In this document: positions 12,017 through 46,778 of the stretch, piece after piece
How the letters are laid out: each line of letters begins with the position of its first letter
Numbering within the stretch: position 1 is the first letter of the stretch
Source of the DNA: Deltaproteobacteria bacterium
GTDB lineage: Bacteria > Myxococcota > B64-G9
Direction: 5' to 3'
Assembly (NCBI GenBank): GCA_030622135.1
Contig: JAUXGL010000001.1
Span: 601-64,600 of the forward strand
DNA: 64,000 nt
Position numbers and translations under genes: made by a program
The notes under the pieces: generated by a model
Seen by the model: only the letters and a program-made list of their open reading frames with translations
The model's database searches: none
Told to the model about the DNA's origin: nothing

Positions 12017-12128
12017 TGTTCGGTATAGTGAACAAACTCCCTCCCGGTAACATATCCCAACTGGCCCATTTGTCAACATTATTATTGACATAAGGGTGTC
12101 GGGTGCTATGCTCCCGGGTGTTAGTTGT

Positions 12129-12140: not shown

Positions 12141-12172
12141 CCCAATGATCCTAATGACCCAAGGAGCAGGGC

Positions 12173-12433: not shown

Positions 12434-12434
12434 A

Positions 12435-19734: not shown

Positions 19735-19842
19735 TATGAGATTCCTTTCTGCGCGGTTTCGCTTGACACCCCACGGGGCCATAGTCTATTTCTCGAACGC
19801 TTATCCTTATTTTTTCCTGCCTTTTTGAAAAGGAGATGGGAG

Positions 19843-21051: not shown

Positions 21052-21114
21052 TGCCCGTCTTAAAACTCCACTTTTCGAGGACGGCGTCGCGCCACACTTC
21101 TTAGGGAGCCCGAC

Positions 21115-21864: not shown

Positions 21865-21878
21865 GAAGGGGACGCAAG

Positions 21879-23036: not shown

Positions 23037-23040
23037 GGCC

Positions 23041-23505: not shown

Positions 23506-23581
23506 GGGCCGCTGAGTAGCACAGTTGGTTGAACCGGTTTTAAATTCCGTGCACCCAAGCAGGGTTAGCTGAGGTGAAGCC

Positions 23582-24340
23582 ATGACCATCGAAATGGAGA
23601 AAAAGAACGACGTCGCCTACATCACCCTGAGTTCCCCGCCGGTGAACATCATGACCGGCGAGACGATGAACGCCATTACCCAGGCGCTCTTGGAGATCGC
23701 CGGGGACCAGTCCCTAAAGGCAGTGGCTTTCAAGGCCGAGGGCAAGGCCTTCTCGGCCGGCGCCGACGTAAAAGAGCACCACCCGGACAAGGCCGCGGGG
23801 ATGATCGGCGCCTTCTCCCGGATGTTCACCGCCCTGGGTAACTGCGAGCTGCCGGTGGTCATGGCCGTTGGGGGCGCCGCCCTGGGCGCCGGCTTCGAGC
23901 TGGTCATGCTGGCGGATGTGCTCATCGCCAGTGACAGCGCCACCTTCGGTCAGCCGGAGATTCGCCTGGCCTTCTTCGCGCCCCTGGGGGTGGCTTACCT
24001 GCCCAAGTTGGTGGGCCCCAACCGGGCCATGGAGATCACCTGCTCGGGCCGGACGTACTCGGCGGAGAAGATGTACGAGTACGGCCTGGTTACCCGGGTG
24101 GTCAAGCCCGAGGAGATCGAGTCGGTCATGGAGGCTTACCTGGACGATATCCGCAAGGCCTCGCCCGCGGTCATACGCCTGAATACGCGGGTGCTGAAGA
24201 AAGTGCGCGATATGCCCTACGAGGAGGCCCACCAGCAGGCCGAAAAGACATTCCTGGAGGAGCTGATGAACCTCGATGATGTTCTCGAAGGGGTCAACTC
24301 TTTTTACGAGAAACGCAAGCCGGACTGGAAAAACAAGTAG
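23582..24340 (+). CDS. Enoyl-CoA hydratase/isomerase (crotonase) family protein
   Basis: 252 aa; crotonase-fold oxyanion-hole motifs (FSAGADV, AVGGAALGAGFELV). Confidence 0.85.
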   Translation: MTIEMEKKNDVAYITLSSPPVNIMTGETMNAITQALLEIAGDQSLKAVAFKAEGKAFSAGADVKEHHPDKAAGMIGAFSRMFTALGNCELPVVMAVGGAALGAGFELVMLADVLIASDSATFGQPEIRLAFFAPLGVAYLPKLVGPNRAMEITCSGRTYSAEKMYEYGLVTRVVKPEEIESVMEAYLDDIRKASPAVIRLNTRVLKKVRDMPYEEAHQQAEKTFLEELMNLDDVLEGVNSFYEKRKPDWKNK

Positions 24341-24349
24341 GGGGCGTCA

Positions 24350-25294
24350 ATGCGAATACTGGTGGTTGGTGCCGGAGCACTCGGGGGGTTGGTGGGCGCG
24401 CAGTTGACCGAAGCGGGGGAGGACGTCCTGCTCCTGGAGATCGATGAGAAGCGCGCGGACTTGCTCAACCGGGAAGGCCTCTACATAACCGAGGAAGGCA
24501 AGGGCGAGCGGAAGATCTCCGTGAGAGTCATCACCACCATGGAGGGAATCGATCCGGTCGATCTGGTCTTCGTCTCGGTGAAGACCTACCAGACCGAGGT
24601 GGCCGTCAAAGGGGTTCTGCCGGTGATTGGGGACGACACCCGGGTGTTGTCCATGCAGAACGGCATCGGCAACACCGACGTGATGGTCGGGATTCTGGGC
24701 AGGGAAAAGGTGCTCTCGGGAATAACCTACCACAGCATCCAGCACACCGGCCCCAACAAGCTGCGCTACCGGGTGGGGATCAAGCCCATCCAGATCGCTT
24801 CGTGTGAGGGCAAGTCCGGCCCCGATGTGGAGAAGATCGGCGAGGTGTTTCGCAAGGCCGGTCTGAAAACCGACGTGGTCCGCAACATCGATCACGTGAT
24901 CTGGCAGAAGCTGTTGCATAACGCCGTGGTCAACCCGGTGTCGGCCCTCACCGGCCAAAACTGCAATCAGCTGCTCGAAGACCAGGATCTCCAGGCGCTC
25001 ATGCGCGAAGTCTGCATGGAGATAATCGCGGTCATGCGGGCCCGTGGCGTGCCCATCATCAATAAAGATGACCCCTACGCGCCGGTGATCGACTCGCAAA
25101 AGGCCCTGGGAGAGAACCGGCCCTCCATGTGGCAGGATCTGGACCGGGGGCTGAAGACCGAAGTGGACGCCCTAAACGGCGCCATCGTGGCGGAGGCCGA
25201 GCGCCACGGGCTCAAGGCCCCGCTGAACTGGATGCTGGTTCGCCTGGTGCACTCGGCCGAGCGCCGGAACCAGAACAAGGAGAGTGGAGAATGA
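24350..25294 (+). CDS. Ketopantoate-reductase (PanE/ApbA) family NAD(P)-dependent oxidoreductase
   Basis: N-terminal MRILVVGAGALGG Rossmann; ApbA N and C domains. Confidence 0.75.
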   Translation: MRILVVGAGALGGLVGAQLTEAGEDVLLLEIDEKRADLLNREGLYITEEGKGERKISVRVITTMEGIDPVDLVFVSVKTYQTEVAVKGVLPVIGDDTRVLSMQNGIGNTDVMVGILGREKVLSGITYHSIQHTGPNKLRYRVGIKPIQIASCEGKSGPDVEKIGEVFRKAGLKTDVVRNIDHVIWQKLLHNAVVNPVSALTGQNCNQLLEDQDLQALMREVCMEIIAVMRARGVPIINKDDPYAPVIDSQKALGENRPSMWQDLDRGLKTEVDALNGAIVAEAERHGLKAPLNWMLVRLVHSAERRNQNKESGE

Positions 25295-26352
25295 CGACGA
25301 TAACCGGTTGGATGATGAAGGAGCCCCAAAAGCCGTTCGAAAAGGAATCCTTCGAGGCCCCCGTTCTAAAGGAGGGCGAGGTTTTGGTGGAGGTGGCCGG
25401 CTGCGGGGTCTGCCACACCGATATCTCGTTTTCTTACCTGGGCGTCAAGACCCGCAAGGAGCCGCCGCTGGTCCTGGGTCACGAGATCTCCGGCAAGGTT
25501 GTGGAGATCGCGGGCGGCGCGGACGCGTCCTTGCAGGGCAAGAACGTCCTGGTTCCCGCGGTGCTGCCCTGCGGCGTCTGCTCCATGTGCAGAAACGACC
25601 GCCGGCGGATCTGCACGGCGCAGATCATGCCCGGCAACGATTGCCACGGTGGCTTCGCCACCCACGTGGTTGTCCCGGCCAAGTTTATCTGCCCGATTCC
25701 CGACGAGGTTCTCAAGAGCCACGAGCTCTGGGAGCTGTCCATCGTCTCCGATGCCGTGACCACTCCCTTCCAGGCGGTCAAGTGCTCCCGGTTGAACGCG
25801 GGCGATCTGGCCATTTGCATCGGCGTGGGCGGGATCGGCGTCCACGGCGTCCAGGTAGCCAAGGGCGCCGGCGCCAAGGTCATTGCCCTGGACGTCGACG
25901 ACCAAAAGCTGGAGGTGGCCCGGCAGGCCGGAGCGGATGAAGTCATCAACATAAAGGGGCTGTCCGGCAAGGAGATCAAGGGCAAGGTGAAGGCGGTCGG
26001 AAAGAGCCTGGGCGCGCCCAAGGCGTTGTGGAAGATCTTCGAGACCTCCGGCACCCGGTCGGGGCAGCAGACCGCCTTCGGCCTGATGGGCTTTGGCGCC
26101 ACCCTGGCCATCGTCGGGTTCACCATGGACAAGGTGGAGGTTCGGCTCTCCAACCTGATGGCCTTCGACGCCGAGATGTTCGGCATCTGGGGCTGCGACC
26201 CGGTACTCTACCCCGAGTGCCTCGACTGGCTGGCCAAGGGCAAGATCCAGGTCAAGCCCTACGTGGAGAAGCACTCCCTCGACGAGATCAACGAAGTCTT
26301 CGAAGCCGCCCACCACGGTAAGCTGCAAAGACGCGCCGTGCTGGTCCCGTAG
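25291..26352 (+). CDS. Zn-dependent alcohol dehydrogenase (MDR family)
   Basis: Preferred ATG 25291 overlapping upstream stop (ATGA); GHEISG, catalytic Zn Cys (CGVCHTD), structural Zn CxxCxxC, GVGGIG NAD motif. Confidence 0.85.
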   Translation: MTTITGWMMKEPQKPFEKESFEAPVLKEGEVLVEVAGCGVCHTDISFSYLGVKTRKEPPLVLGHEISGKVVEIAGGADASLQGKNVLVPAVLPCGVCSMCRNDRRRICTAQIMPGNDCHGGFATHVVVPAKFICPIPDEVLKSHELWELSIVSDAVTTPFQAVKCSRLNAGDLAICIGVGGIGVHGVQVAKGAGAKVIALDVDDQKLEVARQAGADEVINIKGLSGKEIKGKVKAVGKSLGAPKALWKIFETSGTRSGQQTAFGLMGFGATLAIVGFTMDKVEVRLSNLMAFDAEMFGIWGCDPVLYPECLDWLAKGKIQVKPYVEKHSLDEINEVFEAAHHGKLQRRAVLVP

Positions 26353-31336: not shown

Positions 31337-33886
31337 GTGAACCAGAGGATGATATTCCTGTTTTTGGTTGGCGTGCCCGTCTGTCTGTTTCCTCTGGCTG
31401 TGGTCGCGCAGAATTGCCCCAACCCCGTCACCATCGCCTGCGGGGACACGCCCTCCGGCAGCAACCAAAACGGTAACGACGGTCACGACAACTACGGCTG
31501 TGCGGAGTTCTCCTGGGATTTGACCGCGGCGGAGATTTATTACCGGCTCACCATTACCGAGGAGGAATTCCTCTGGATCAACCTGGAGCCGACCTCGGTG
31601 TGGGATCTGGCCCTGATTGTTCTTTCGGAGAGCGGAGGCGACTGCGGCGCGGTCCCCGTACTCTGCGTGGACGACATGCTTGACGATGATCCGGAATTTA
31701 CCTTTGTTACGCTACCGGCCGGGACCTACTACATCGTGGTGGATGGTTATAACGATGGTTACGGCACCTACGATTTGACCGTGATTTGCGAGGAGTGTAC
31801 CGACGCGGACGGGGACACCTATCCCGGCCTGGGGGTGAGCACCTGCTTTTCGGGCAACGACTGCTGTGACACCGGCGCCGAGGTTTCTTCGGGTTGCACC
31901 GTCGGAAACGCCGCAGACATCCATCCCGGAGCCCAGGAGATATGCGGCAACGGCATCGACAACGACTGCAGCGGCCATGACGATCCTTGCCCGAGCTGCG
32001 GTGCCGACGAGAATATCGCCTGCGCCGACACCAAAACGGTGGATACGACCGGCGGGGCGTCGAACTTGAGTGACTACTGCCACGGGTTGGGCGCCCACTC
32101 CGGAACCGACTGGAGCGGCCCCGAGCACATCTTTTCGTTTACGCCTACGAGCGACGCCGGGGTGGTCTTTGCGATCGACTCGACCGCCGCGCTGGACATG
32201 TTTGCCCTTCCCGACTATGGCGATCCCGCTGTCTGTAACATGGACACATGTCTTTCCATCGGGGGGAGCGGCTCGGGTTTCGCTCTCGGGAACGACCCGG
32301 TGGTCTTCTACGCCGAGACGGGGGAGACCTACTTTATTTCCGTGGATGGCAACGAGGGCGCGGCCGGTTCGTTTAACTACGACGTGGAGTGCCGGACCGA
32401 GTTTTGCGTTTCCGATGCCGACATCGCGTGCAAGCATCGCGTGTCCGGCGACACCACCGGTAAGGACAACAACGTGAGCGTGTACAAAGGCTGGGGCCGG
32501 GAGTTTCCGGCACCCGAGTATGTGTACGCGCTGAAGACCGACCTGGACGCCGACGTGGTTGTCAATCTGGACATGGAGACGGGCATCGACCTGGCCATTT
32601 TCGTGATCGAGGACAGCGGAGATGGTTGCAGCCCCGGCGATGTCCTGGCCTCCAGCGACATCGACAACGTGCGCGACAACGATTGGACCGAGTACGTTTC
32701 GTTCTCCAGCATCGGCGGGGTCGACTACTACGTGGTGGTGGATGGGCGGCCGGCCGTCGGTTATGGCGCCTTCGACCTGGACGTGACCTGCTCGGTCGAG
32801 TGCGGGGAGGGGTTCGACGACTGCGGGTTCGGTTTTTGCTTGGACGTAAGCAGCGACGTCGACAACTGCGGCGCGTGCGACAACGTCTGTGATCTGCCCG
32901 GCGTCGACCAGCACGAGTGCTTGGCCGGCGCCTGCACGGTGGTTTCCTGTGACGTCGACTACGACGACTGCGATGCAACCGACGCCAACGGTTGCGAGGC
33001 CGATCTGCTCGCCGACCGCGCCCACTGCGGCGTTTGCAACAACGGCTGCGGCGCCGACCAGATCTGCGCCGCCGGTGTCTGCCAGGACTGCGGGTTGGGC
33101 GAGATCGTTTGCGGCAACACCTGCATCGATACCGACACCGATCCGGATCACTGCGGCGTCTGCGACAACGTCTGCGACCTGCCCAATGTCGACCAGCACG
33201 GCTGCGTATCCGGCGCCTGCACGGTGGTTAGCTGCGACGCGGACTTCGATGACTGCGACTCGGACGTTTCCAACGGCTGCGAGGTGGACCTGCTTACCAG
33301 CGACGTTCACTGCGGCGGTTGCAACCAGGCCTGCGACACCGCGCAGGGGGAGGACTGCTGCGGTGGAACCTGTGCGGATCTGGATTCCAGCACCGTCCAC
33401 TGCGGCGCCTGCAACAACGCCTGCGCGGCCGGCAAGTCGTGCTGCGACGGCACCTGCGCCGATCTGAACGACGACGTTGGCCACTGTGGCGCCTGCGGCA
33501 ACGCCTGCGCGACCGGCGAGGCGTGCTGTGACGGCACCTGCGCCGATCTGAACGACGACGACGGCCATTGCGGCGCCTGCGGAAATGCCTGCGTGGCCGG
33601 ACCGGGTTGCCTGAACGGGACTTGCTGCGCCGATGCGGATTCGGATGACCACTATGACCAGGGCTGCGGCGGAGACGACTGCGATGACACCGTCGCAGCG
33701 ATCCACCCGGGCGCCGAGGAGATCTGCAACAAAGTCGACGACGACTGTAACGGAACCATCGACGACGGGGACGTCTGCAAGCGCGATGGGGGCTGCGGAT
33801 GCATGGCGATCGACGGCACCCCGGCATCCGGTTTGTTCCTGCTCCTTCTAGTCATCGGCCTGGTACGTTTCCGCGGGAGCCGATGA
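31337..33886 (+). CDS. Large secreted protein: signal peptide, pre-peptidase-C-terminal (PPC)-like domains, Cys-rich CxxCxNxC repeat arrays, MYXO-CTERM-like tail
   Basis: 849 aa; signal MNQRMIFLFLVGVPVCLFPLAVVAQ; PPC-like YY..VDGY..G.G.YDL.V units; MopE-like metal-binding motifs (DADGDTYPG..., CDDTVAAIHPGAEEICNKVDDDCNG); about 8 repeats HCGxCxNxC; C-terminus GGCGCMAIDGTPASGLFLLLLVIGLVRFRGSR. Confidence 0.75.
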   Translation: MNQRMIFLFLVGVPVCLFPLAVVAQNCPNPVTIACGDTPSGSNQNGNDGHDNYGCAEFSWDLTAAEIYYRLTITEEEFLWINLEPTSVWDLALIVLSESGGDCGAVPVLCVDDMLDDDPEFTFVTLPAGTYYIVVDGYNDGYGTYDLTVICEECTDADGDTYPGLGVSTCFSGNDCCDTGAEVSSGCTVGNAADIHPGAQEICGNGIDNDCSGHDDPCPSCGADENIACADTKTVDTTGGASNLSDYCHGLGAHSGTDWSGPEHIFSFTPTSDAGVVFAIDSTAALDMFALPDYGDPAVCNMDTCLSIGGSGSGFALGNDPVVFYAETGETYFISVDGNEGAAGSFNYDVECRTEFCVSDADIACKHRVSGDTTGKDNNVSVYKGWGREFPAPEYVYALKTDLDADVVVNLDMETGIDLAIFVIEDSGDGCSPGDVLASSDIDNVRDNDWTEYVSFSSIGGVDYYVVVDGRPAVGYGAFDLDVTCSVECGEGFDDCGFGFCLDVSSDVDNCGACDNVCDLPGVDQHECLAGACTVVSCDVDYDDCDATDANGCEADLLADRAHCGVCNNGCGADQICAAGVCQDCGLGEIVCGNTCIDTDTDPDHCGVCDNVCDLPNVDQHGCVSGACTVVSCDADFDDCDSDVSNGCEVDLLTSDVHCGGCNQACDTAQGEDCCGGTCADLDSSTVHCGACNNACAAGKSCCDGTCADLNDDVGHCGACGNACATGEACCDGTCADLNDDDGHCGACGNACVAGPGCLNGTCCADADSDDHYDQGCGGDDCDDTVAAIHPGAEEICNKVDDDCNGTIDDGDVCKRDGGCGCMAIDGTPASGLFLLLLVIGLVRFRGSR

Positions 33887-34642
33887 AGCCGCCGGGAAAC
33901 CGCTTATTGCTCATAGTCGGGGCGATTCTATTTTTGCTTTCGGCCCAGGCTCGAGGGGCCAAGAAGCGCACTTTAATTGCTCGGAGCGGCTGACCCTGTG
34001 TCGAGGCGGAGGTTCTCTCCCGTTGGAATGTATATTGTAATCTGGGTATGCACTGGTGATATTAGAACAAAATGGGAGGCGCCAGATGTGCCGCGGGCGG
34101 GGGGGGATACCCACTGACGCACAAGCTAATGCCTCCCAGTCAAGTACTAGAGCAACATCCGTGCCAAAAACCGTGCATACGTTGTTTTTTTTTCCTCTTT
34201 TAAAACAATGCATTGTGAAGGGGGAGGACACTGATCGGGGTTATGTTTACGGTAGTTATGTGGTATTAATCCCTTTTATTCTTGTAGGTTTTGTATTGAT
34301 TTTTTTTATAAACATTCGGTGGCCTATGGTAACATGGCCATAGTTCAGGGTTTTATAGTGCTGCCTATACAGGCACAATTGTAAAGTTAGACAAATAAGC
34401 AATAGGGTGCAAAAACCATGTTTTTATGGCTCTACTCGAAAACATTCATGATAACAATTAATTGCGGTGTGGCATTTTGACACTAGCCGGAAAACCGCCG
34501 TTTTTACAATAGGTTGCATTTCCACCCGAGACTTCGTTTGTAACGGGAACTACAAGGAGAATGCAATTGTCGACGAGGGGCTTCGCGCCGTGGTTGACAG
34601 ACATAACCCCGCGCGGTACAGAAACTCTCCGCGGAGGAGAAT

Positions 34643-35884
34643 ATGAGCGAAAAGAAACTGGAACAGAAGAAGATAGCCTCGGTGAAGACATTCAAGAAGA
34701 TCATGGCGGATCACTTCCTGCAGATCGACGCGGCCGCGAGGGATCCCGGGCGTAAGGTGGCTTGGTGTACCAGCGTGGGGCCGGCGGAGCTTTTGCAGGG
34801 GTTTGGGTTCGAGGTGTACTACCCGGAGAACCACGCGGCTATTCTTGGGTCCACCCGGACGGCCACGGACTATATACCCTACGCCAACGCCGCCGGGTAT
34901 TCCCCGGAGATCTGCTCCTACCTGACCGCCGACGTGGGTGCATACATGCAGGGCTTCACTCCGTTGACCAAGGTCTACGGGATCGAGAAGATCCCCAAGC
35001 CCGACGTGCTGGTCTACAACACCAACCAGTGCCGCGACGTCCAGGACTGGTTCATGTGGTATTCCCGCGAGTGGAAGGTTCCCTGCGTGGGTATCGAGAC
35101 CCATCGCGGCGTGGGCGCGGTAACCAAGGTGCACATCGATTCCATAGCCGGGCAGCTCCAAGACCTCGCCGGCAAGCTCGAGAAGATCGCCGGGCACCCG
35201 CTGGACATGGATCGGTTCAAGCAATCGGTGGAGCTGTCGCGCCGGTGTTCGGAGCTTTGGGACAAGGTGCTCCGCGCCGGTACGGCGGTGCCTTCCGCCA
35301 TCACTTTCTTCGACGGCACCATCCACATGGGTCCCGCGGTGGTCCTGCGCGGACTCCAGGTGGCGGTGGACTACTACCAGGAACTGTTGGTCGAGATGGA
35401 AGCGCGGGTGCAGAACAAGGTGGCCGCGGTCGCAGGGGAGAAGCACCGTCTTTACTGGGAAGGCATGCCTGTCTGGGGCAAGCTCAGAAACCTGTCCATG
35501 CAGTTTCTCGAGCTGCAGACCTGCGTGGTGGCGTCCACCTACTGCAACTCCTGGATTTTCAATCAGCTGGATCCCGACGAGCCCTTCGAGTCCATGGCCC
35601 GCGCCTACACCGAGCTGTTCATCGTCAGAAGCGATGCGGTCAAGGAGGACTACATTGCCCGGATGTGCGCGGACTACCGAGTCGACGGTTTCTTTTACCA
35701 CAACGCCCGCACCTGCCCGAACAATTCCAACTCCAGCTACGGAATGCCCCAGCGCCTGACCGAGCGGACCGGGAAGCCACACCTGGTCATCGACGGGGAT
35801 CTCAACGACCTGCGCTGTTACTCGGAGGAACAGGCCAAGACCAACATCGAGGCCTTTGTCGAGCAACTCGCCCAGGCAACATGA
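34643..35884 (+). CDS. 2-hydroxyacyl-CoA dehydratase / benzoyl-CoA-reductase-subunit family protein (HgdB/BcrB-like)
   Basis: 413 aa; family hallmarks including conserved Cys (WCTSVGP, ICSY, CNSW, CPNNSNS) and overall length and conservation pattern of HgdB/HadC/BcrB-type subunits. Confidence 0.7.
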   Translation: MSEKKLEQKKIASVKTFKKIMADHFLQIDAAARDPGRKVAWCTSVGPAELLQGFGFEVYYPENHAAILGSTRTATDYIPYANAAGYSPEICSYLTADVGAYMQGFTPLTKVYGIEKIPKPDVLVYNTNQCRDVQDWFMWYSREWKVPCVGIETHRGVGAVTKVHIDSIAGQLQDLAGKLEKIAGHPLDMDRFKQSVELSRRCSELWDKVLRAGTAVPSAITFFDGTIHMGPAVVLRGLQVAVDYYQELLVEMEARVQNKVAAVAGEKHRLYWEGMPVWGKLRNLSMQFLELQTCVVASTYCNSWIFNQLDPDEPFESMARAYTELFIVRSDAVKEDYIARMCADYRVDGFFYHNARTCPNNSNSSYGMPQRLTERTGKPHLVIDGDLNDLRCYSEEQAKTNIEAFVEQLAQAT

Positions 35885-36660
35885 AACTGTTCTGCGGCAT
35901 CGACGTTGGCTCGGCCGCCACCAAGGCCGTCCTGATCACCGGGTCTCTCGAGGTGCAGGGGCGGGGGCTGTGTCCCTCGGGAGCCGACTTCTCGGCCGCG
36001 GCCCGGCAGGTGTTCGACGCGGCCCTGGCCGGGGTCGGCGCCGGGGAGGCCGACGTAGAGGCGATCGTCTCCACCGGCTACGGCCGCACCAACGTGGATT
36101 TCGCCACCGCCAGGCGGACCGAGATCGACTGTCACGCTCGGGGTGCCTATCATCACTTCAAAAGGGCCATCACCGTAGTCGACATCGGTGGCCAGGACAA
36201 CAAGATCATCCAGCTCGATGCCGCGGGCAAGTGTCTCAAGTTCGCCATGAACCGCAAGTGCGCGGCCGGTACCGGCGCCTTTTTAGAGGAGATGGCCCTG
36301 CGGCTGAACGTCCCCATCGACAAGCTCTCGAAGATGGCCGAAAACAGCGCGGCCCCGGGTGTATCCATCGGCTCCTACTGCACGGTCTTCGCCATGACCG
36401 AGATTCTCTCCAAGGTGCGCGCGGGAGTGAAGACCGAGGACCTGGCCCGGGCGGCCCTGGTCTCGGTGGCCAAGCGCCTCCTGGAGACCCAGGCCATCGT
36501 CACGGACATCGTGGCCACCGGCGGCGTGGTGGCTCATAACCCGGTTCTGCGGGACATCCTCAAGGAGATTTTGAAGACCGAGGTTCATATCCCTCCGCAT
36601 CCCCAGCACATCGGAGCCTTCGGCGCCGCCCTGGTGGCCGCATCGGAGCAGAAGGAGTAA
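35881..36660 (+). CDS. Acyl-CoA dehydratase activase (HgdC/BcrAD/BadFG ATPase family)
   Basis: 259 aa MKLFCGIDVGSAATKAV (ASKHA phosphate-1 motif), cluster-bridging Cys pair, ATGA-coupled to upstream gene. Confidence 0.8.
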   Translation: MKLFCGIDVGSAATKAVLITGSLEVQGRGLCPSGADFSAAARQVFDAALAGVGAGEADVEAIVSTGYGRTNVDFATARRTEIDCHARGAYHHFKRAITVVDIGGQDNKIIQLDAAGKCLKFAMNRKCAAGTGAFLEEMALRLNVPIDKLSKMAENSAAPGVSIGSYCTVFAMTEILSKVRAGVKTEDLARAALVSVAKRLLETQAIVTDIVATGGVVAHNPVLRDILKEILKTEVHIPPHPQHIGAFGAALVAASEQKE

Positions 36661-36663
36661 AAG

Positions 36664-38769
36664 ATGGCAGACCTGAACAACCTCTTCCGCCCCCGGGGTA
36701 TCGCCATCATCGGCGCGTCCAATCGCCCGTTCACCATCGGCCACCGCATCATGGCAAATCTACAGACCTACGGTTTCAAGGGCCCCATCACCCCGGTCAA
36801 CCCCAAGGGTGGGGAGATCCTGGGCGTTCCGGTGGCCAGGTCCATAAAGGAAGTGCAGAACGACGTCGACCTGGCCCACGTCATCGTGCGCAACACCCTG
36901 GTGGCCCCGACCCTGCGCGACTGCGCCGAGAAGGGCGTGAAGGTGTGCATAATCAACACCTCCGGCTTCAAGGAGCTCAACCAGGAAGGCGCGAAGATGG
37001 AGCGGGAGATCGTCGAGATCGCCCGTGAGCTGGGCATTCGCCTCTTGGGCCCCAACTGCCAGGGGGTGATGAACACCGACTTGGAGGTGAACCTGTACTC
37101 CAACTTCACCTTCGCCAAGATGACCCCGGGCCACGTGTCCATGGTCTGTCAGGGTGGTGGTGTCGCCGAGGTAATCAACAACTACTTTGGCATGAACCAC
37201 ATCGGCCAGCGCATGTACGCTTCCCCGGGAAACGCCTGTGATATCTCCATCCCCGAGATCCTCGAGTTCTACGGCGACGATCCCGGGACCCACGTCATCG
37301 TCCTGCACCTGGAGAGCTTTGCCGATCCCCAGGAGTTTTTAGACAAGGTCCCCGCCATCACCGCCAAGAAACCCGTTCTGGCGCTCAAGTCCGGCACCAC
37401 CCCGGAGGGTGCCCGGGCGGTCTCCTCGCACACCGGTGGCCTGATGGAGCAGGACACCGTCACCGATGTGCTGTTCGACAAGTGCGGCGTCTTGCGTTTC
37501 GCCAATCTCGGCGAGCTTTGTGACACCGCCGCCGCCTTCGCCACCCAGCCGGTCCCCAGGGGCGACCGCGTGGGCATGGTTACCAACGCCGGTTCCCCCG
37601 CCATCATCGTCACCGATGGGGCGGTCAAGGCCGGCCTGAAGGTCCCCGACCTGAGCGAGTCCTCCAAGGAGTTTTTGCGGGAGAAGCTCTCGGCTATCGC
37701 CTCCATCGCCAACCCCATAGATATGATGGCCACCGCCGCGGAGGCCGAGTTCGGCGCCTCGCTCAAGATCCTGGTGGAAGACGCCAATCTCGATTCGGTG
37801 GTGGTTTGCTTCATGACCCCCTTCTTCGTCGACACTCTGGGCATTGCCAAGGCGGTGGAGACCTACGCGGCCCAGACCGACCGCACCCTGATTGCCGTGG
37901 CCATGACCGATCCCGGCGGAAAGGCGGAGTGGAGAGAGACGGTGGAGAAGGTCAGAAAGGCCGGCCTTCCGGTCTACTATTTCCCCGAGGACGCCGCCCG
38001 GGTGCTTTATCACATGAACCGTTTCCGCGCCCTCAGGGACCGCCCGCGCGAGGCCCCGCCCAGGCTGGCCGTGGACAAGAACGCGGCCCGGGGCCTGATC
38101 CAGGGCGCCCAGCGGAGCCCCGATGGTTTCATCTCCCCGGAGGACGCCGGCGCCATCCTGAAGGCCTACGGCATCAACATGGTCGCCGAGCACCGCGGCG
38201 GTACTTTCAACGACCTGAAGGCGGCCGCGGCCAAGATAGGCTACCCGGTGGTCCTGAAGGCCGAGGCTCCAACCCTGGTTCACAAGACCGAGTCTTTCGC
38301 GGTCATCTTAAACATCAAGGACGAGGCCGAGCTGAAAAAAGCCTTCGACGACCTCTATGCCCGCTTGAGGGGCGTCCTGGACTTGTCCTACCTGTTGCAG
38401 AACCAGCTAATCGGTGGCCTGGAGGTCATCGTCGGCGGCGCCCGGGCCTCCAAGTTAGGCTCCATGATCATGTTCGGCCTCGGCGGCGTGAACGTGGAGA
38501 TATTCAAGGACGTGGTCTTCAAGCTGGCTCCCCTCTGCCGTTCCGAGGCCGAGGAGATGCTTGCGGAGATCAGGTCGTCCACCCTGCTGGACGGCTTCCG
38601 CGGCCAGCCGGCGGTCGACCGCGGCGCCCTGGTCGAAATCCTGTTGAAAGTCTCCGTTCTGTTGCACGACCACCCCGAGATCGAGGAGCTTGACCTGAAC
38701 CCGGTCATGGCCTTTCCCGAAGGCCGCTCGTCCGTGGTGGTCGATGCGAGGATCAAACTGGGCAAATAG
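36664..38769 (+). CDS. ADP-forming acyl-CoA synthetase (NDP-forming; fused alpha/beta, CoA-binding + ATP-grasp)
   Basis: 701 aa; N-term RGIAIIGASNRP CoA-binding, catalytic His region, C-terminal ATP-grasp; starts 3 nt after activase stop. Confidence 0.8.
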   Translation: MADLNNLFRPRGIAIIGASNRPFTIGHRIMANLQTYGFKGPITPVNPKGGEILGVPVARSIKEVQNDVDLAHVIVRNTLVAPTLRDCAEKGVKVCIINTSGFKELNQEGAKMEREIVEIARELGIRLLGPNCQGVMNTDLEVNLYSNFTFAKMTPGHVSMVCQGGGVAEVINNYFGMNHIGQRMYASPGNACDISIPEILEFYGDDPGTHVIVLHLESFADPQEFLDKVPAITAKKPVLALKSGTTPEGARAVSSHTGGLMEQDTVTDVLFDKCGVLRFANLGELCDTAAAFATQPVPRGDRVGMVTNAGSPAIIVTDGAVKAGLKVPDLSESSKEFLREKLSAIASIANPIDMMATAAEAEFGASLKILVEDANLDSVVVCFMTPFFVDTLGIAKAVETYAAQTDRTLIAVAMTDPGGKAEWRETVEKVRKAGLPVYYFPEDAARVLYHMNRFRALRDRPREAPPRLAVDKNAARGLIQGAQRSPDGFISPEDAGAILKAYGINMVAEHRGGTFNDLKAAAAKIGYPVVLKAEAPTLVHKTESFAVILNIKDEAELKKAFDDLYARLRGVLDLSYLLQNQLIGGLEVIVGGARASKLGSMIMFGLGGVNVEIFKDVVFKLAPLCRSEAEEMLAEIRSSTLLDGFRGQPAVDRGALVEILLKVSVLLHDHPEIEELDLNPVMAFPEGRSSVVVDARIKLGK

Positions 38770-38776
38770 AGGTGTT

Positions 38777-40321
38777 ATGGCGAACTGGCTGAACCTGGGC
38801 GAGATGCTGAGACAAAACGCTCACAAGTACCCCGAGACGATCTGTCTCATGGACCGCGAAAGGTCTTTCACCTTTCCCCAGTCCAACCGGCGCGCCTGCC
38901 GCCTGGCCCACGGTTTAATGTCTTTAGGGTTGAAGAAGGGCGACCGGGTCTCTTGCCTTTTGGAGAACTGCATCGAGTTCGTGGAAATCTACCTGGCCTG
39001 CGCCAAGGTCGGCATCGTGGTGAACCCGATCAACTTCCGCGTTTCCCCGCGGGACGCTCTTTTCATCGCCAACCACGCCGAGGCCCAGGCCTTCATCGTC
39101 CACGACATCTTCACCGACACCGTCGACGGCATCCGCCGGGACTTGATTGTTCCCCAGGATCGCTGCGTGGTCGTGGGTAAGGAAAAAGACGGCTACATTC
39201 CCTACGAAACCCTGATCGACCCAGGCGACTCCTCCGAACCCCAGGTGGAACTGAAACCGTCGGACCCCTGGATCCTCCTCTACACCTCCGGCACCACCGG
39301 TCGCCCCAAGGGGGTGATGAGGTCTCACGAGTCTTACGTGGCGTTTTATTTAATCAACGCGATAGACTTCGATTTTCGCCCCGGCGACCGCGTACTGAAC
39401 ATGATGCCCCTGTGTCATGTCAACACAACCTTCTTTACCTTCACCTTCACTTACATCGGCGGCACGACCTACGTGGCCCCCGCCATGGGCTTCGACCCCA
39501 AGAAGATGTTGCAGATCGTCGGGGACGCCGGGATCAACTTCATATCTCTCATTCCCACCCACTACGCCCTGATTTTGGCCGTACCCGAGGAAGAGAGAGC
39601 GAAATACGACGTCTCCAGCATCAAGAAGCTCCTGTGCTCCTCGGCCCCCGCGAGGATCGAGCACAAGCATGGCATCATGAAGTACATGCAGGGCGTCCAA
39701 CTCTACGAAGGCTACGGCTCGACCGAGGCCGGCATCGTGACCACGTTGATGCCCGACGAGCAGCTGACCAAGCCCGGCTCAATCGGCAAGGAGTCTTTGG
39801 GCACCGACCGCGTAAAGATCCTCGACGAGGAAAAACAAGAGCTCCCCCGCGGCCAGATCGGCGAACTGTACTCCCGCGGCCCCATGATGTTCGACGGCTA
39901 CTACAAGGACCCCGAAAAAACCACCAAGTCATTCGCCGGCGAATGGTTCTCCGCCGGCGACATGGCCTACCAGGATGAGGACGGCTATTTCTTCTTAGTC
40001 GATCGCAAGCACAACATGATAATCACCGGCGGCGAGCACGTCTTTCCCTCCGAAGTCGAGAACGTACTCTGCCAGCACGAAACGGTCCTAGACGCCGCCG
40101 TAATCGGCGTCCCCCATGACAAATGGGGCGAATCGGTCCACGCCGTAGTGATATTAAAGGAAGGCTGCTCCTGCCGCGACCAGGATCTGATGGACTTCTG
40201 CCGCGACCGCTTAGCCGGTTTCAAGCGCCCCAAGACCGTCCAATTCATCGCCCTTGACGAAATGCCCCGCACCGCCACCGGCAAGATCCTCCACCGCATC
40301 CTGCGCGAACGCTGTTCTTAA
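38777..40321 (+). CDS. AMP-dependent acyl-CoA synthetase/ligase
   Basis: Preferred ATG 38777; AMP-binding motif LYTSGTTGRPKGV, YGSTE, C-terminal GKI lysine region. Confidence 0.85.
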   Translation: MANWLNLGEMLRQNAHKYPETICLMDRERSFTFPQSNRRACRLAHGLMSLGLKKGDRVSCLLENCIEFVEIYLACAKVGIVVNPINFRVSPRDALFIANHAEAQAFIVHDIFTDTVDGIRRDLIVPQDRCVVVGKEKDGYIPYETLIDPGDSSEPQVELKPSDPWILLYTSGTTGRPKGVMRSHESYVAFYLINAIDFDFRPGDRVLNMMPLCHVNTTFFTFTFTYIGGTTYVAPAMGFDPKKMLQIVGDAGINFISLIPTHYALILAVPEEERAKYDVSSIKKLLCSSAPARIEHKHGIMKYMQGVQLYEGYGSTEAGIVTTLMPDEQLTKPGSIGKESLGTDRVKILDEEKQELPRGQIGELYSRGPMMFDGYYKDPEKTTKSFAGEWFSAGDMAYQDEDGYFFLVDRKHNMIITGGEHVFPSEVENVLCQHETVLDAAVIGVPHDKWGESVHAVVILKEGCSCRDQDLMDFCRDRLAGFKRPKTVQFIALDEMPRTATGKILHRILRERCS

Positions 40322-40493
40322 GGGGTTAGAATGGGAGCTACCGCCGTGCCCTGACACCCGTTTTTGGGCCGTCGACAATGACCTCGATGATCAAGATTGC
40401 GTGCGTGCCGGGTGAGCATGGTGAAAGAATAGCATTTTCTAAGACTGCATGGTAGGAATGACGCTATTGGTAATATAAGCAAGGAGGTTATTC

Positions 40494-41795
40494 ATGCGAC
40501 GGAAAATGTTCGTACTGGCTATGTTGTTGGCACTTGGATTCGTCTTTGGATGCAGCTCCGGCGGCGGCCCGGTGAAGCTCGAGAACATCTGCGAGGAGAT
40601 GAAGGCGGCCATGTGTAGTTACCTCAAGAGATGCGATATCGAGTGGTTTCTCCAGGTCGCGACACATGAGACCTGCGACCAGATGATAAAATGCGACGAT
40701 GATGATATGGAGTTCGATGAGATGACCAAGGCGGTGGAGGCGGGGAGGATGGCATACGACGCGGACCTGGCCGGCAAGTGCCTGCGGCTCATTCGCACGG
40801 CCGAGTGTGCCGATGTCGAGGGGATCTTCGAGAACATGTCGGAAGAGTGCGAGAATGTCTTCTCCGGCCTGGTCGCCCAGGACGGAGATTGCTATCAGGA
40901 GGAAGAGTGCGCCGGGGGCCTCTACTGTGACGAGACCGTGTCGGAGTGCCCGGGCCAGTGTCAGCCGTACCAAGGCCTCGGGGATACATGCGACGACAGC
41001 AGCGAATGCGATCCGGATGCCGCCGACTGCAATTGGCAGGAAGGCGTCTGTGTGGAACTGGTCGGCACGGGGGAGAACTGCGATTACGTCGACTGCGCGG
41101 CGGGGCTGGTGTGCGACCACAACAGCAAACCGGCGGTCTGCCTTGCTCCGGCTCCGGAGGGGTCCGACTGCACGTCCTCCCGCGGTTGTCTGGGTGGGCT
41201 GCAGTGCGTGGACGGGAAATGCGCCGGCCCGGCGGGCGCGGGACAGGAATGCAACATCGGCGAGGGTTTCGAGAGATTCATGGGATTCATGTTTGCCTGC
41301 GAGCTGGGCTACTACTGCGACGCGGATGTTTTCCTGCAGCAGAGCAGCGGCACTTGCCAGTCCAAGAAGGCCTCGGGATCGGAATGCATCCTTTTCCACG
41401 AATGCAACTCCGGCCTGCTGTGCATCGGCATGCAGATAAACGAGCAGACCTTCAAGGTCATTCCGGGATCGTGCGGAAAGCCGCTCGAGGCGGGGGCGTC
41501 GTGCAACCCCGATTTCGAGTTTCCCGAATGCGACTGGGATCTCTACTGCGACGGGCATACCTCGGTCTGCACCGTCTTCCCGGGCATCGGCGATCCTTGC
41601 GTCTACGGAAATGACCCCGGGTGTTTCGGCGGCGATCTCTACTGCGATTCTTTGGCGTTGGGCGTACCCGGAGTCTGCCAGCAGAAGAAGCCGGACGGCT
41701 CCGACTGCACGACCTACGAGGAGTGCCAAAGCCACAACTGCGACATCGACGGCACCGATACCTGCCTGCCGGATGAGCGCTGTACCGCGCCGTAA
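40494..41795 (+). CDS. Cys-rich secreted lipoprotein, hypothetical
   Basis: Signal + lipobox MRRKMFVLAMLLALGFVFGC; about 50 Cys in recurring CxxGLxCD/ GxCQ patterns. Confidence 0.6.
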   Translation: MRRKMFVLAMLLALGFVFGCSSGGGPVKLENICEEMKAAMCSYLKRCDIEWFLQVATHETCDQMIKCDDDDMEFDEMTKAVEAGRMAYDADLAGKCLRLIRTAECADVEGIFENMSEECENVFSGLVAQDGDCYQEEECAGGLYCDETVSECPGQCQPYQGLGDTCDDSSECDPDAADCNWQEGVCVELVGTGENCDYVDCAAGLVCDHNSKPAVCLAPAPEGSDCTSSRGCLGGLQCVDGKCAGPAGAGQECNIGEGFERFMGFMFACELGYYCDADVFLQQSSGTCQSKKASGSECILFHECNSGLLCIGMQINEQTFKVIPGSCGKPLEAGASCNPDFEFPECDWDLYCDGHTSVCTVFPGIGDPCVYGNDPGCFGGDLYCDSLALGVPGVCQQKKPDGSDCTTYEECQSHNCDIDGTDTCLPDERCTAP

Positions 41796-41816
41796 AACCA
41801 ACCGGGGGAGAACGCC

Positions 41817-42839
41817 GTGAAGAAGCCCATCCGAGTGCTGGTCGTGGACGACTCGATAATCTGCCGCGAGGCGATCGCCATCTTGTTGAACCAGGCTCCG
41901 GACATCGACGTGGTGGGCAAGGCCGCCGACGGGCGAGAGGCCATCGACCTCAACCGGCAACTGAGGCCGGACATCATTACCATGGACGCCAAGATGCCCG
42001 GGGTGGACGGGTTCGCCGCTATCTCCGAGATCATGGCCAGCCAGCCGGTTCCCATTGTTATGGTGACTGGTTATCTAACCGCCGAGGGCGCCGGCATGAC
42101 CTTGAAGGCCCTGGCCCTGGGCGCATTGGACATCATGGAGAAGCCCGAGTTCGATGGCTCGCTGGCCTCCACGCTCCGCGAGAAGGTGAGACTGCTGGCC
42201 GGCGTCCCGGTATACAAGCGCGAACCCAAGAAGCAGCGGGAATACACGGTTATGACCACCAACGTGGAGGGCCGGGCGTCCAAGATCGTCGGCATCGTCT
42301 CTTCCACCGGCGGTCCCAAGGCGCTCTTGGAGATCCTGGCCCCCCTGCCCAAGAAGTTCAAGAGCTGCATCTTGGTTACCCAGCGCCTTCCCAAGGGATT
42401 CTCCACCGGTTTTGCCGAGTGGCTCAACGCCGAGGTGTCCCTGGAGGTTCGCGAGGCCAAGGACGGCGATCGCATCGAGCCGGGCAAGGTTCTAGTGGCC
42501 CCCAGCGGTTGCCACCTGGTCCTGCGATCGCGTGATCGGATCGCCCTGTCCGACGAACCGATGGTCGACGGCCACCGGCCCTCCGGTTCCATGATGTTCA
42601 AGTCCATCGCCCGCCGTTGCGCCAGAGACTCCATCGGAATCGTTCTCTCCGGTATCGGCGTGGACGGCGCCTCCGGCCTGCGCGAGCTGAGACAATCCGG
42701 CGGCTTCTGTCTGGCCCAGAACGAAACCAGCAGCCTCTTCTTCGACATGCCCAAGGCCGCCATCGAAGCCGGCGCCGTAAACGAGATCCTCGACATCGGA
42801 GAAATAGCCGGCTTTCTCCTCATCTGCGCCGAATCCTGA
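41817..42839 (+). CDS. cheB: Chemotaxis response regulator protein-glutamate methylesterase CheB
   Basis: GTG start; REC domain (VVDDS...D...MPGVDG) + CheB methylesterase (GIVSSTGGPKAL). No other che genes nearby. Confidence 0.85.
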   Translation: MKKPIRVLVVDDSIICREAIAILLNQAPDIDVVGKAADGREAIDLNRQLRPDIITMDAKMPGVDGFAAISEIMASQPVPIVMVTGYLTAEGAGMTLKALALGALDIMEKPEFDGSLASTLREKVRLLAGVPVYKREPKKQREYTVMTTNVEGRASKIVGIVSSTGGPKALLEILAPLPKKFKSCILVTQRLPKGFSTGFAEWLNAEVSLEVREAKDGDRIEPGKVLVAPSGCHLVLRSRDRIALSDEPMVDGHRPSGSMMFKSIARRCARDSIGIVLSGIGVDGASGLRELRQSGGFCLAQNETSSLFFDMPKAAIEAGAVNEILDIGEIAGFLLICAES

Positions 42840-44226: not shown

Positions 44227-44417
44227 TAAAATCTCGCCCGGCCATTATATACACCCGAACAGGGAAATCAATATCGCCCTCAGCCCATAATCTCCCAGCC
44301 CATTTCCGGTCGATCCCAACACCCTTTTCGGGCATTACCGGTGAATTGGGGTGGGTCCTAGAGAAGTTGCATCCTCCCGAGGGATTGCCTATAATTTCTT
44401 GGGATTACGTGTAGTTG

Positions 44418-46778
44418 ATGAAGGTGGTGAGGGTGGCGAACGAATCAGACGATCGTCGGGGGCATTTGCGTGTTCCCGTGAACTTGCTGGTGCGGGTCAA
44501 GTACGAGCAGGTGGGTGAATTCATGGTTCACTTTGCCACCAACATCAGCTCGGGCGGGGTATTTCTCCAGAGCCGGAAGCCCTACAAGAAGGGAACCCGT
44601 CTACGCTTCGAGATTCGGCTGAAGGGCGGGCAGACGATCCTGCGGGGCGAGGGGGCGGTGGCCTGGTGCCGTGGACCTTCCGAGGGGGAGGATAAGCCCC
44701 AGGTGCCGGGTATGGGGGTGAAGTTTGTCGCCCTGGACGATGCATCGAAGGTCCTGGTCAGAAAGATCCTCGAGATCAAGGCGGGCAAGAAGGCAACGGC
44801 GAAACCAAAACCAAAACCAAAACCAAAACCTGCCCCAGTGGACGTAGACATCGACATAGACATCGACGTGGGGGCAGAGGTTCCCGCACCCGAACAGAGT
44901 CCGACCGTCGAGGTGGGCAACGGTTTGGAGGTAGAGGCGCGGACGGGTATCGAGGTGGATATCGACGTGGATGTGGACGTCGAGGAGCCCGACGATTTCG
45001 ACGTGGACATCTCGGTGGACGACTTCGTGGATCCTGCCGAGGATCAGGTAAAGGCTGCCCGGTCGCCCACCGGGGGGGGATCCTCGCGCGTCATCGGGAT
45101 CGACCTGGGCACCACCAACTCCTGCGCTGCGGTGGTGATCGACGGAAAGCCCAAGGTGATTCCCTCCCGCAAGGGATACCGCACCATTCCCTCCATCGTG
45201 GCCTACGCCGACGACGGCCGCTTACTGGTGGGGCATTCGGCCAAGGCGCAGATGGAGTTGAACCCGCGAAACACCGTTTATAGCTCCAAGCGCCTGATCG
45301 GCCGCTCCTTCGATTCCCAGGCCGTGCAGCAGATGAAAAGCCGGTTCCACTACGAGATTATCGAGGGGCCCAAGCACGAGGCGGCCGTCCGGGTGGCGGG
45401 AAGGACCTTCAGTCTGCAGCAGGTGGCCGCGTTCATCCTGACCGAGATCCGCGACATCGCGCGTGACCTGCTCCAGGAAGAGGTAAACCGGGCGGTGATC
45501 ACCGTGCCGGCCTACTTCAACGAAAATCAGCGCGAGGCCGTGCGCGAGGCGGGCATCCTGGCCGGCCTCCAGGTGGAGCGTATCATTAACGAGCCGACGG
45601 CGGCGGCACTGGCCTTCGGGTACGACCGCGGCCTGGATCAGAGGATACTGGTGTACGACCTCGGTGGCGGGACCTTCGACGCCACCGTGCTCGAGCTGTG
45701 CGGCAACGTATACGAGGTGGTGTCCACCGGCGGCGACACCTTTTTAGGCGGAGTGGATTTCGACAATCAGCTGGTCGACTACCTGCTAGACGCTTTCTGT
45801 CGGGACATGGGTACGGTTCCCCAGTTGGACCGCTCTGCGGTGCAGCGGCTGCGCGACGCCGCCGAGCAGGCCAAGTGTGCCCTGAGCGAGAAGGAAGAAA
45901 CCATCGTCAGGATCCCCTTCTTCGCCGCAATCGATAACACCCCCAAGGACCTGGAGGTGCGCGTCACCCGGGTGCTTCTGGAGGACATGGTCACTCCCCT
46001 GGTGGAGCGGACCATGTTGGTGGCCACCAACGTGCTCGAGCAGGCCAAGCTGCGGCCCAAGCAGATCAACAACGTGCTGCTGGTCGGCGGACAGAGCCGC
46101 ATGCCGCTAATCTGGCGCCGGATCAAGGAGCTGTTCGACCGGGATCCCCACAAGGGTGTTCATCCCGACGAGGCGGTGGCCATCGGGGCGGCCTTGCTGG
46201 CCAATTCCCAGGGCAAGATCGACAGTGTGGTTCTTATAGATGTCCTGCCGGTGAGCATCGGAATCGGAATCCCCGGCGGGCGCTTCATGCGGGTGCTCGA
46301 GGGCGGGACCGCCCTGCCCACCACCAAGACCTACACGATCCGGACGTTCAAGGACGACCAGGACACGCTGGAACTAGCCGTTTTTCAGGGAGAAAGCGAC
46401 CGGGTGGTGGACAACGAGTACCTGGGGACGATGACCATATCCGGCATCACCAAGGCCCCCAAGGGTGCTGTGCAACTGGAGATCACCTTTTCCCTCGACC
46501 AGGAATGCCTGTTGAAAGTATCTTCCCGGGAACTTCAGTCGGGAAAGATCACCGAGACCCAGATGGGCGTCAAAGATACAGAGGACATCATTCGCAAGAA
46601 GCTCAAGATCCCCGAGAGCGAGATCAGCATGCGGAAGTACGGAGTCCCCCGATCGTTACGCCAGGCCGATAAAAAGCAACCGGTTGTTAGGAAGCAGCCG
46701 GGAGAAAAGGAGACAGAGGGGGAAAACTCCAAGGAAAAAGGAGGGCTTCTGGGTAAGCTGTTCGGGCGCAAGAAATAG
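44418..46778 (+). CDS. PilZ-domain / Hsp70 (DnaK-like) fusion protein with low-complexity KP and DVDID linker
   Basis: N-terminal PilZ-like ([14 protein letters not shown]...ISSGGVFL, RxxxR...D/NxSxGG). Linker (KP)n and (DID/DVD)n. From [12 protein letters not shown] onward, Hsp70 NBD motifs (DLGGGTFD) and an SBD-like region. Confidence 0.8.
44803..45010 (+). repeat. Coding microsatellite-like repeats (aaacca)n and (gacatc/gacgtg)n inside the PilZ-Hsp70 linker
   Basis: aaaccaaaaccaaaaccaaaacc and gacatcgacatagacatcgac / gtggatatcgacgtggatgtggacgtc seen directly. Confidence 0.7.

Follow-up and report, generated by a model that had tools for sequence, protein, structure and literature searches.

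The 64-kb window analysed here (64,000 nucleotides of contig JAUXGL010000001.1, assembly GCA_030622135.1, from a Myxococcota bacterium) contains a four-gene operon at 34643-40321 (+), in which a single gene for a catalytic-type subunit of the 2-hydroxyacyl-CoA dehydratase (HAD)/benzoyl-CoA reductase (BCR) family, termed here the HGD-D protein, is followed by the gene for its activase and by two genes for acyl-CoA-forming enzymes. The HGD-D protein is of the alpha, substrate-binding type, and the beta subunit that normally accompanies it is encoded neither in the window nor beside nearly all of the related genes that we compared. With a little more belief than doubt, we read the operon as encoding an ATP-activated, iron-sulfur, ketyl-radical acyl-CoA dehydratase of the HAD kind, built from one HadB-like alpha subunit type and probably an alpha2 homodimer, not an alpha-beta heterodimer. 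Such an enzyme would be of the oxygen-sensitive iron-sulfur 'radical' type, and probably represents a form of a known enzyme class that has gone unstudied. The sequence-only reading of this DNA had proposed a non-canonical enzyme with one type of catalytic subunit and its own activase, acting on a CoA thioester; that core has held up (83 of 84 loci, a conserved pair, ligases in most loci), whereas the roles it gave to the ligases and its HgdB label have not.

HADs and class I BCRs are textbook cases of ATP-driven 'electron archery' into iron-sulfur clusters, and to our knowledge every characterised member that converts a CoA ester needs a second homologous subunit to relay or store the electron. 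How an energised electron is delivered and retained without the beta cluster is the question posed by a widespread clade in which the catalytic-type subunit is kept and the partner dropped. The characterised CoA-ester-converting enzymes HadBC, HgdAB, FldBC, LcdAB, BcrBC, BzdNO and MbdON are alpha-beta heterodimers (PMC7317905, PMC11971306). Systems of a single HGD-D protein with an activase are known, namely DCCP/DCCP-R (a proven homodimer), YjiM/YjiL and fused forms, and all of these fall in the sequence clusters of double-cubane or fused proteins (PMC7317905, PMC9351452). In the literature searched, outside which most subscription journals lie, we found the papers on DCCP and BzdNO but no account of a large partner-less alpha-type clade with links to CoA ligases and 2-hydroxyacid dehydrogenases; a prior description is possible.

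One HGD-D gene and one activase gene

The four open reading frames (ORFs) are tightly packed on one strand, just as the sequence-only reading had described them:

34232-34642 (+), presumed promoter region with ribosome-binding site, from reading the sequence
34643-35884 (+), HGD-D gene, 413 aa; PF06050 HGD-D over residues 45-409, E 2.8e-59
35881-36660 (+), activase gene, 259 aa; PF01869 BcrAD_BadFG, E 1.9e-49
36664-38769 (+), ADP-forming acyl-CoA synthetase gene, 701 aa; CoA_binding/CoA_binding_2, Succ_CoA_lig and ATP-grasp_5
38777-40321 (+), AMP-forming acyl-CoA ligase gene, 514 aa; AMP-binding (2.3e-84) and AMP-binding_C

The ATG of the activase gene overlaps the TGA of the HGD-D gene as ATGA, 3 nt separate the activase from the synthetase, and 7 nt separate the synthetase from the AMP-ligase, counting to the ATG at 38777; a start at 38744, where there is another ATG in frame, is also possible. 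The intergenic DNA in front of the HGD-D gene is about 410 nt long, with a GGAGGAG Shine-Dalgarno sequence directly 5' of the gene's ATG at 34643. Promoter- and terminator-like matches around the operon did not exceed the shuffled background, with no convincing sigma-70-type site on the forward strand, and no Rfam family matched anywhere in the window.

The absence of a second catalytic subunit from the window, as earlier claimed, is borne out by a family hidden Markov model (HMM) built from 96 diverse full-length members and run on all six-frame ORFs of at least 40 aa. It gave one match, the HGD-D protein itself (2.4e-171), and the next best had an E value of 1.2; as positive controls, the same HMM detects beta-type subunits at two other loci, at 2.6e-26 (L079) and 2.6e-17 (L090). 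The window covers 34.6 kb upstream of the HGD-D gene and 23.7 kb downstream of the operon. A fusion of the two subunit types was also considered and is ruled out, a single HGD-D domain spanning residues 45-409.

The same solitary arrangement recurs widely. The ortholog set comprises 120 database clusters, 63-92% identical, and a tblastn search (E <= 1e-3) of a GTDB-based collection found relatives in at least 583 species genomes. The best 80 of these are 62-79% identical, the closest (79%) being uncultured Myxococcales/Myxococcota; other hosts belong to the Desulfobacterota, Planctomycetota, Chloroflexota and Acidobacteriota, with a few archaeal metagenome-assembled genomes (MAGs). We compared 84 loci from different species (83 related loci and the window), taking up to 10 kb per side and less at contig ends. 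The HGD-D gene is the sole one of its family in 83 of the 84, across at least six phyla, and an activase gene lies within 8 kb of it in 75; five of the nine loci without a nearby activase are contig ends and one has a split gene. The HGD-D/activase pair is thus the conserved core of these loci. Its identity of 62-79% across phyla suggests that the module was transferred as a unit, in which case it moved without a beta gene. Two overlapping ORFs make up the activase gene at L072:11237-12029 and at L066:7405-8191, by frameshift or assembly error.

The exception, L079:5299-9998 (minus strand) in an Acidobacteriota MAG, carries a canonical set of alpha (2e-93), beta (2.6e-26) and two activases as a divergent neighbour of the single-type gene, so both architectures coexist in one genome. 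Further out, distant members of the clade also stand alone with an activase (P0133, P0127, P0124 and P0122, at 39%, 44%, 47% and 49% identity). P0141 (37% identity, without C42 and C301, two of the extra cysteines discussed below) belongs to a canonical operon of an activase, a 378-aa beta and a 407-aa alpha subunit. P0136 (36% identity, no extra cysteines) also stands by itself, with no activase gene beside it; the single-subunit clade therefore lacks a sharp boundary, and this protein breaks any strict link between the extra cysteines and the single-subunit architecture.

An alternative is that the enzyme is a heterodimeric dehydratase or reductase of the canonical kind, with its beta subunit encoded at some other place in the genome. 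Inspection extended over 64 kb here and at most 10 kb per side in the other loci, and L079 illustrates that canonical HGD-D genes can share a genome with a single-type gene. However, the alpha and beta genes are neighbours in the characterised HADs and BCRs (PMC7317905) and in our control locus L090, and no beta gene lies nearby in 83 of the 84 loci, which represent at least six phyla, even though the activase is almost always adjacent. The compact module, including forms in which the HGD-D protein is itself fused to a PanE/ApbA domain and followed by the activase, recurs across distant phyla, again without beta. We regard a remotely encoded partner as quite improbable.

Alpha-type fold, predicted cluster ligands and extra cysteines

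The HGD-D protein had been called HgdB/BcrB-like. Profile placement and fold matches retain the BcrB part of that label and discard the HgdB part: the protein is of the alpha type, with HadB, HgdA, BcrB and BzdO, and not of the HgdB/HadC type. A profile of 60 orthologs, searched against the PDB, matched HadB alpha best (1.4e-65), followed by MbdO (8.5e-43) and BzdO (8.5e-31). DCCP reached 3e-7, and of the beta-type subunits HadC reached 0.017 and MbdN 0.1. The two-Rossmann-like-domain HGD-D fold is present (PF06050, AlphaFold2 model, Foldseek). The AlphaFold2 model (pLDDT 91.9, pTM 0.90) is most similar to HadB (3O3M_A; TM-score 0.89-0.92, root-mean-square deviation 2.2 Å), then to MbdO/BzdO (about 0.85), DCCP (about 0.75) and HadC/BzdN/MbdN (about 0.70).

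In the alignments C91, C130 and C358 line up with the cysteines of HadB and with BzdO Cys95/128/380, which are [4Fe-4S] ligands (PMC11971306), and the three are predicted to hold a [4Fe-4S] cluster that leaves one iron free. E62 lines up with BzdO Glu65, and the YPEN glutamate is the same as in HadB. In BzdO, Glu65 and His131 are the proton-donor pair at the aqua-[4Fe-4S] cluster. The position of BzdO His131 is V133 in the HGD-D protein; MbdO also has no histidine there.

By its sequence, the activase is an ASKHA-type ATP-dependent activator ('archerase'). It scores 227 bits on TIGR00241, above the cutoff of 125.4, and its PDB matches are MbdQ (1.8e-48), HadI (1.1e-47), HgdC (1.2e-40) and DCCP-R (3e-30). 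Cys127 (KCAAGTG) and Cys167 (YCTVFA) fall in motifs conserved with MbdQ and HadI, and we take them to correspond to the two cysteines of the HgdC structure that hold the bridging [4Fe-4S] cluster. There being one activase gene, the protein is presumably a homodimer, as are the HAD activators and DCCP-R, and unlike the BcrAD/BzdPQ heterodimers.

Besides the three predicted ligands the clade conserves three further cysteines, at positions where HadB has Ser, Pro and Ala (C42, C301 and C392, respectively). Conservation in the alignment of 120 orthologs is as follows:

C42, kept in 119/121
C91, kept in 120/121
C130, kept in 121/121
C301, kept in 121/121
C358, kept in 121/121
C392, kept in 116/121

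In the AlphaFold2 model each of the six is located at the end of a strand or the start of a helix, the usual ligand sites of the fold. Such a set invites comparison with the double-cubane motif of seven cysteines, CX19CX18-19CX29CX166-170CX32-34CX32C, with its six [8Fe-9S] ligands (PMC7317905). C130 corresponds to motif Cys 4 (in the YjiM alignment only), and C301 and C358 correspond to Cys 5 and Cys 7 (in those with DCCP and YjiM). Cys 6 has no counterpart, an invariant L325-R329 stretch lying there (F326-V328 region); C392 belongs to an insertion of three residues not present in DCCP or YjiM; the N-terminal halves would not align, and the motif as a whole is incomplete. An assignment of C301/C358/C392 to Cys 5/6/7 was rejected, since the same alignments make C358 the last ligand. 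Membership of the DCCP family is ruled out by the motif and by the score on the double-cubane equivalog NF040772 (52.8 bits against a cutoff of 350, in the C-terminal half only).

These comparisons bear on the idea that the pair is a small-molecule reductase like DCCP or YjiM, with no CoA-ester role and with the ligase genes as mere neighbours. DCCP/DCCP-R of Carboxydothermus hydrogenoformans (PDB 6ENO, 7YYL) and YjiM/YjiL of E. coli do share the gene count, one HGD-D and one ASKHA reductase gene (PMC7317905), and the proven DCCP homodimer is a precedent for a homomeric HGD-D enzyme, with which the gene count here is compatible. Yet the HGD-D protein is far closer to HadB (225 vs 33 bits; TM-score 0.9 vs 0.75), and its similarity to DCCP is remote and confined to the C-terminal half. 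DCCP has narrow channels and reduces small molecules, whereas the protein here has a HadB-like N-terminal region and its gene is tightly coupled to CoA ligase genes in most loci, here by the 3- and 7-nt gaps. We give this idea hardly any credence.

C42, at the end of the first strand, would correspond by topology to BzdN Cys36. Several observations weaken a double-cubane assignment. MbdO, too, has a cysteine at position 42, as do about 20% of the ordinary three-Cys alpha-type representatives. C392 is lost in relatives at 44-49% identity, which leaves C301 as the one extra cysteine that is truly specific to the clade. A third point comes from BzdO, where the space of the lost second cubane is taken by Trp46 together with the benzoyl ring, and is lined by Trp46, Tyr97, Leu302 and Leu383 (PMC11971306). 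Trp46 is replaced here by an invariant G46 (MbdO likewise has Cys and Gly at the C42 and G46 positions), and Tyr97 and Leu383 by Y93 and N361; C301 is near the Leu302 position by sequence, in a stretch that did not align. Lining an altered acyl pocket is thus one possible role of the extra cysteines, and ligating an additional metal site is the other; that there is such a second site for a cluster or metal, we consider rather unlikely.

The clade is a candidate link between the homodimeric double-cubane proteins and the heterodimeric enzymes, the evolutionary path proposed in PMC11971306. In its specific form, this would make it an intermediate between homodimeric double-cubane proteins and heterodimeric HAD/BCR enzymes, with a site ligated by C42 and C301, and by C392 or a non-Cys residue as the third ligand, replacing the electron storage of beta, which we hold to be unlikely. 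One relative, P0142 (L088, 413 aa), has Q, G and N at C91, C130 and C358 and keeps C42, C301 and C392; it comes from a short contig with no activase on it, and gives a hint that the extra three may constitute a separate unit.

Ligases, substrate class and proposed reaction

The ADP-forming synthetase has fused alpha and beta domains and an SSHTGG stretch; among NCBIfam models it comes closest to those for ADP-forming 4-hydroxybutyrate- and acetate-CoA ligases, with all scores far short of the cutoffs. The AMP-ligase has the motif YTSGTTGRPKG, and its nearest NCBIfam model is the fatty-acid-CoA ligase PRK06187 (445.6 bits, cutoff 476). Among the 47 loci with at least 6 kb of downstream sequence, both ligases are found in 15, the ADP-forming enzyme only in eight, the AMP-ligase only in ten and neither in 14, which gives orthologs of the synthetase in 23/47 and of the AMP-ligase in 25/47 loci. 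This either/or pattern suggests that the two ligases are alternative, interchangeable ways to make the substrate thioester, and argues against the earlier proposal that the thioester is made and recycled by the two together as an obligatory pair. The ADP-forming enzyme could still serve in ATP recovery.

What acid is activated is suggested by other recurrent neighbours. Clustering of neighbouring ORFs revealed a strongly similar PanE/ApbA-family 2-oxoacid reductase gene adjacent in 14 loci, and in three proteins (P0122 of locus L087, P0125 and P0139) a PanE/ApbA domain is fused N-terminally to HGD-D. Directly upstream in 25 loci (L017:7272-9980 and 24 others, e.g. L013, L018, L023 and L026; mainly Desulfobacterota MAGs) lies a gene for a protein of about 900 aa that combines a GlcD-type FAD oxidase, a 4Fe-4S dicluster and two CCG domains, an architecture expected of a D-2-hydroxyacid dehydrogenase. 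The PanE/ApbA and GlcD-type families interconvert 2-oxo and D-2-hydroxy acids, and together their genes mark 39 of the 84 loci. An acyl-CoA dehydrogenase gene is adjacent in L091. The recurrence of PanE and GlcD genes and the PanE-HGD-D fusions point to an (R)-2-hydroxyacyl-CoA substrate and to dehydratase rather than reductase chemistry. What had been left as an unknown CoA thioester is thereby kept as a CoA thioester and narrowed to this probable class.

Two side observations concern these loci. Of the fusion proteins, P0122 keeps C42, C91, C130, C301 and C358; P0125 and P0139 have lost all of the cluster cysteines, and may thus be non-catalytic or scaffold versions. Genes of xanthine-dehydrogenase-family molybdoenzymes (Fer2, FAD_binding_5, MoCoBD) occur near the pair in several genomes, at L083:3-3770, at L087:11019-14757 and in about seven loci.

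A more serious contender is an ATP-driven reductase of a difficult acyl-CoA (aromatic, dienoyl or unsaturated) with stoichiometric ATP use, in which the extra cysteines would hold a second cubane (a DCCP/BzdN-like [8Fe-9S] cluster for electron storage) or act as a thiol hydrogen donor. MbdO, BzdO and BcrB are the next-best matches and, with MbdO and BzdO the second-closest structures, the equivalents of Cys95/128/380 and Glu65 are conserved; the activase resembles MbdQ and HadI equally closely. G46 stands in place of the BzdO tryptophan that fills the lost sub-cluster space (PMC11971306), C301 matches double-cubane ligand Cys 5 (as C130 and C358 match Cys 4 and 7), and the molybdoenzymes just mentioned neighbour the pair in several loci. 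On the other hand, the sixth double-cubane ligand is missing, C392 is in an insertion and is lost at 44-49% identity, and Cys 42 is shared with MbdO and ordinary three-Cys alpha-type proteins, and BzdO His131 has no counterpart here, nor has it in MbdO. Class I BCRs need an [8Fe-9S] partner (BzdN/MbdN/BcrC) and two different ATPase subunits (BzdPQ/MbdPQ/BcrAD), against one HGD-D and one activase gene here. The genes that recur beside the pair encode 2-hydroxyacid dehydrogenases rather than ring-cleavage or dienoyl-CoA enzymes, and no aromatic-degradation genes are found near the operon. Taken together, we find a reductase unlikely.

For the dehydratase that we favour, we propose four steps, of which the first, third and fourth derive from homology and context. 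First, a carboxylic acid, most likely an (R)-2-hydroxy acid, would be converted to its CoA thioester by the AMP-ligase and/or the ADP-forming synthetase; in other genomes the acid would be supplied by the adjacent PanE/ApbA- or GlcD-type 2-hydroxyacid dehydrogenase. Second, the homodimeric activase, reduced by ferredoxin or flavodoxin, would hydrolyse ATP and pass one low-potential electron into the C91/C130/C358 [4Fe-4S] cluster. Third, the thioester carbonyl, bound to the cysteine-free iron, would become a ketyl radical, and the 2-hydroxyl would leave with the conserved E62 acting as acid; 2-enoyl-CoA would be released and the electron recycled. Fourth, the enoyl-CoA would be hydrated and oxidised by a neighbouring FadJ-like enzyme (listed below), or reduced, and an acyl-CoA end product could be cleaved by the ADP-forming synthetase with a gain of ATP. 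In a homodimer without beta, the second alpha copy might serve as relay or storage cluster, which would entail half-of-the-sites behaviour, or the extra Cys site might do so instead.

The scheme follows the pathway logic of the HAD systems, in which a 2-oxoacid is converted to an (R)-2-hydroxyacid, its CoA ester and an enoyl-CoA, the dehydratase removing water from the (R)-2-hydroxyacyl-CoA by syn-elimination. HadBC/HadI of Clostridioides difficile (PDB 3O3M, 4EHT) is the nearest characterised system, HadB being closest in sequence and fold (27% identity, TM-score about 0.9), and with it, as likewise with HgdAB/HgdC, FldBC/FldI and LcdAB/LcdC, the operon shares the three [4Fe-4S] cysteine positions, the YPEN glutamate and one homodimer-type activase gene. 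Unlike them, it has no HadC/HgdB-type beta subunit, it would activate its substrate by ligases and not by a CoA-transferase, and its clade has the extra conserved C42, C301 and C392. The hosts differ as well, being Myxococcota, Desulfobacterota, Planctomycetota, Chloroflexota and some archaeal MAGs, not Clostridia. The 2-hydroxyacid dehydrogenase of the HAD pathways is of the 2-Hacid_dh family, where the clade loci have PanE/ApbA- or GlcD-type genes. The clade thus departs from HADs and BCRs in the heterodimer feature and from DCCP in the cysteine motif, and most likely works like a HAD.

Several points weigh against this reading. Beside the operon in this window there is no closely related PanE or GlcD gene; the ApbA gene of the window is 9 kb away and a distant paralog, matching the ApbA domain of P0122 at 6e-30, where the adjacent ApbA genes of other loci match it at 1e-47 to 1e-72. 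The HGD-D protein scores 210.1 bits on the NCBIfam HadB equivalog NF052455, whose cutoff is 750, and 148.6 and 85.1 bits on TIGR02260 and TIGR03191, equivalogs of class I BCR catalytic subunits (cutoffs 486.55 and 448.6); with every equivalog score far below cutoff, it is a relative of the HadB, BcrB and double-cubane enzymes and an ortholog of none. C42 and C301 are at or near acyl-pocket positions of BzdO, in the space of the lost second cubane, so the active site may differ from that of HadB and could allow reductase chemistry. Within the limits of inspection given above, a distant beta gene is possible, and biochemistry for any clade member was not found in the literature searched.

If the dehydratase reading is right, the clade marks a probable, unrecognised route for 2-hydroxy or 2-oxo acids in uncultured anaerobic Myxococcota, Desulfobacterota, Planctomycetota and Chloroflexota, and a radical dehydratase of two genes (enzyme and activase) could be easier to express.

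Other genes in the window

Three features upstream of the operon concern acyl-CoA or 2-oxoacid metabolism:

19825-26352 (+), operon of thiolase, short-chain dehydrogenase/reductase, SCP2-type thiolase/DUF35 (ChsH2-like), enoyl-CoA hydratase, ApbA and zinc-dependent alcohol dehydrogenase genes; syntenic with L003 and L006
24341-25294 (+), PanE/ApbA-family reductase, in an operon separate from that of the HGD-D gene; ApbA and ApbA_C, 258 bits on TIGR00745
28089-30116 (-), FadJ-like 3-hydroxyacyl-CoA dehydrogenase/enoyl-CoA hydratase; 3HCDH_N and ECH_1; divergent, 4.5 kb upstream

The operon at 19825-26352 resembles a beta-oxidation module for side chains or branched acids, and may relate functionally to the HGD-D operon in Myxococcota. 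In the Myxococcota loci L003, L005, L006 and L032 an ortholog of the FadJ-like gene is found at the corresponding place, the association being mainly one of Myxococcota; through this enzyme an enoyl-CoA product could enter beta-oxidation.

A tungsten-type aldehyde:ferredoxin oxidoreductase (AFOR_N, AFOR_C) is encoded at 12435-14375 (+), with a divergent IclR-family regulator at 11249-12451 (-), and suggests anaerobic metabolism in this Myxococcota-like genome. Large cysteine-rich proteins (Stig1/MXAN_6577-like and Dickkopf_N-like repeats) are encoded on both sides of the HGD-D operon, at 31337-33886 (+) and 40494-41795 (+). The second of these is overlapped almost fully by a 490-aa ORF on the opposite strand (40488-41960), so that the choice of coding strand there follows from the domain hit alone. 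Downstream of a CheB methylesterase gene (41817-42839), the 787-aa protein encoded at 44415-46778 (+) fuses an N-terminal PilZ (c-di-GMP-binding) domain to an Hsp70/DnaK-like ATPase. A polyketide-synthase-like fragment with PP-binding, KR and polyketide synthase dehydratase domains, at 61026-63998 (-), runs off the end of the window.

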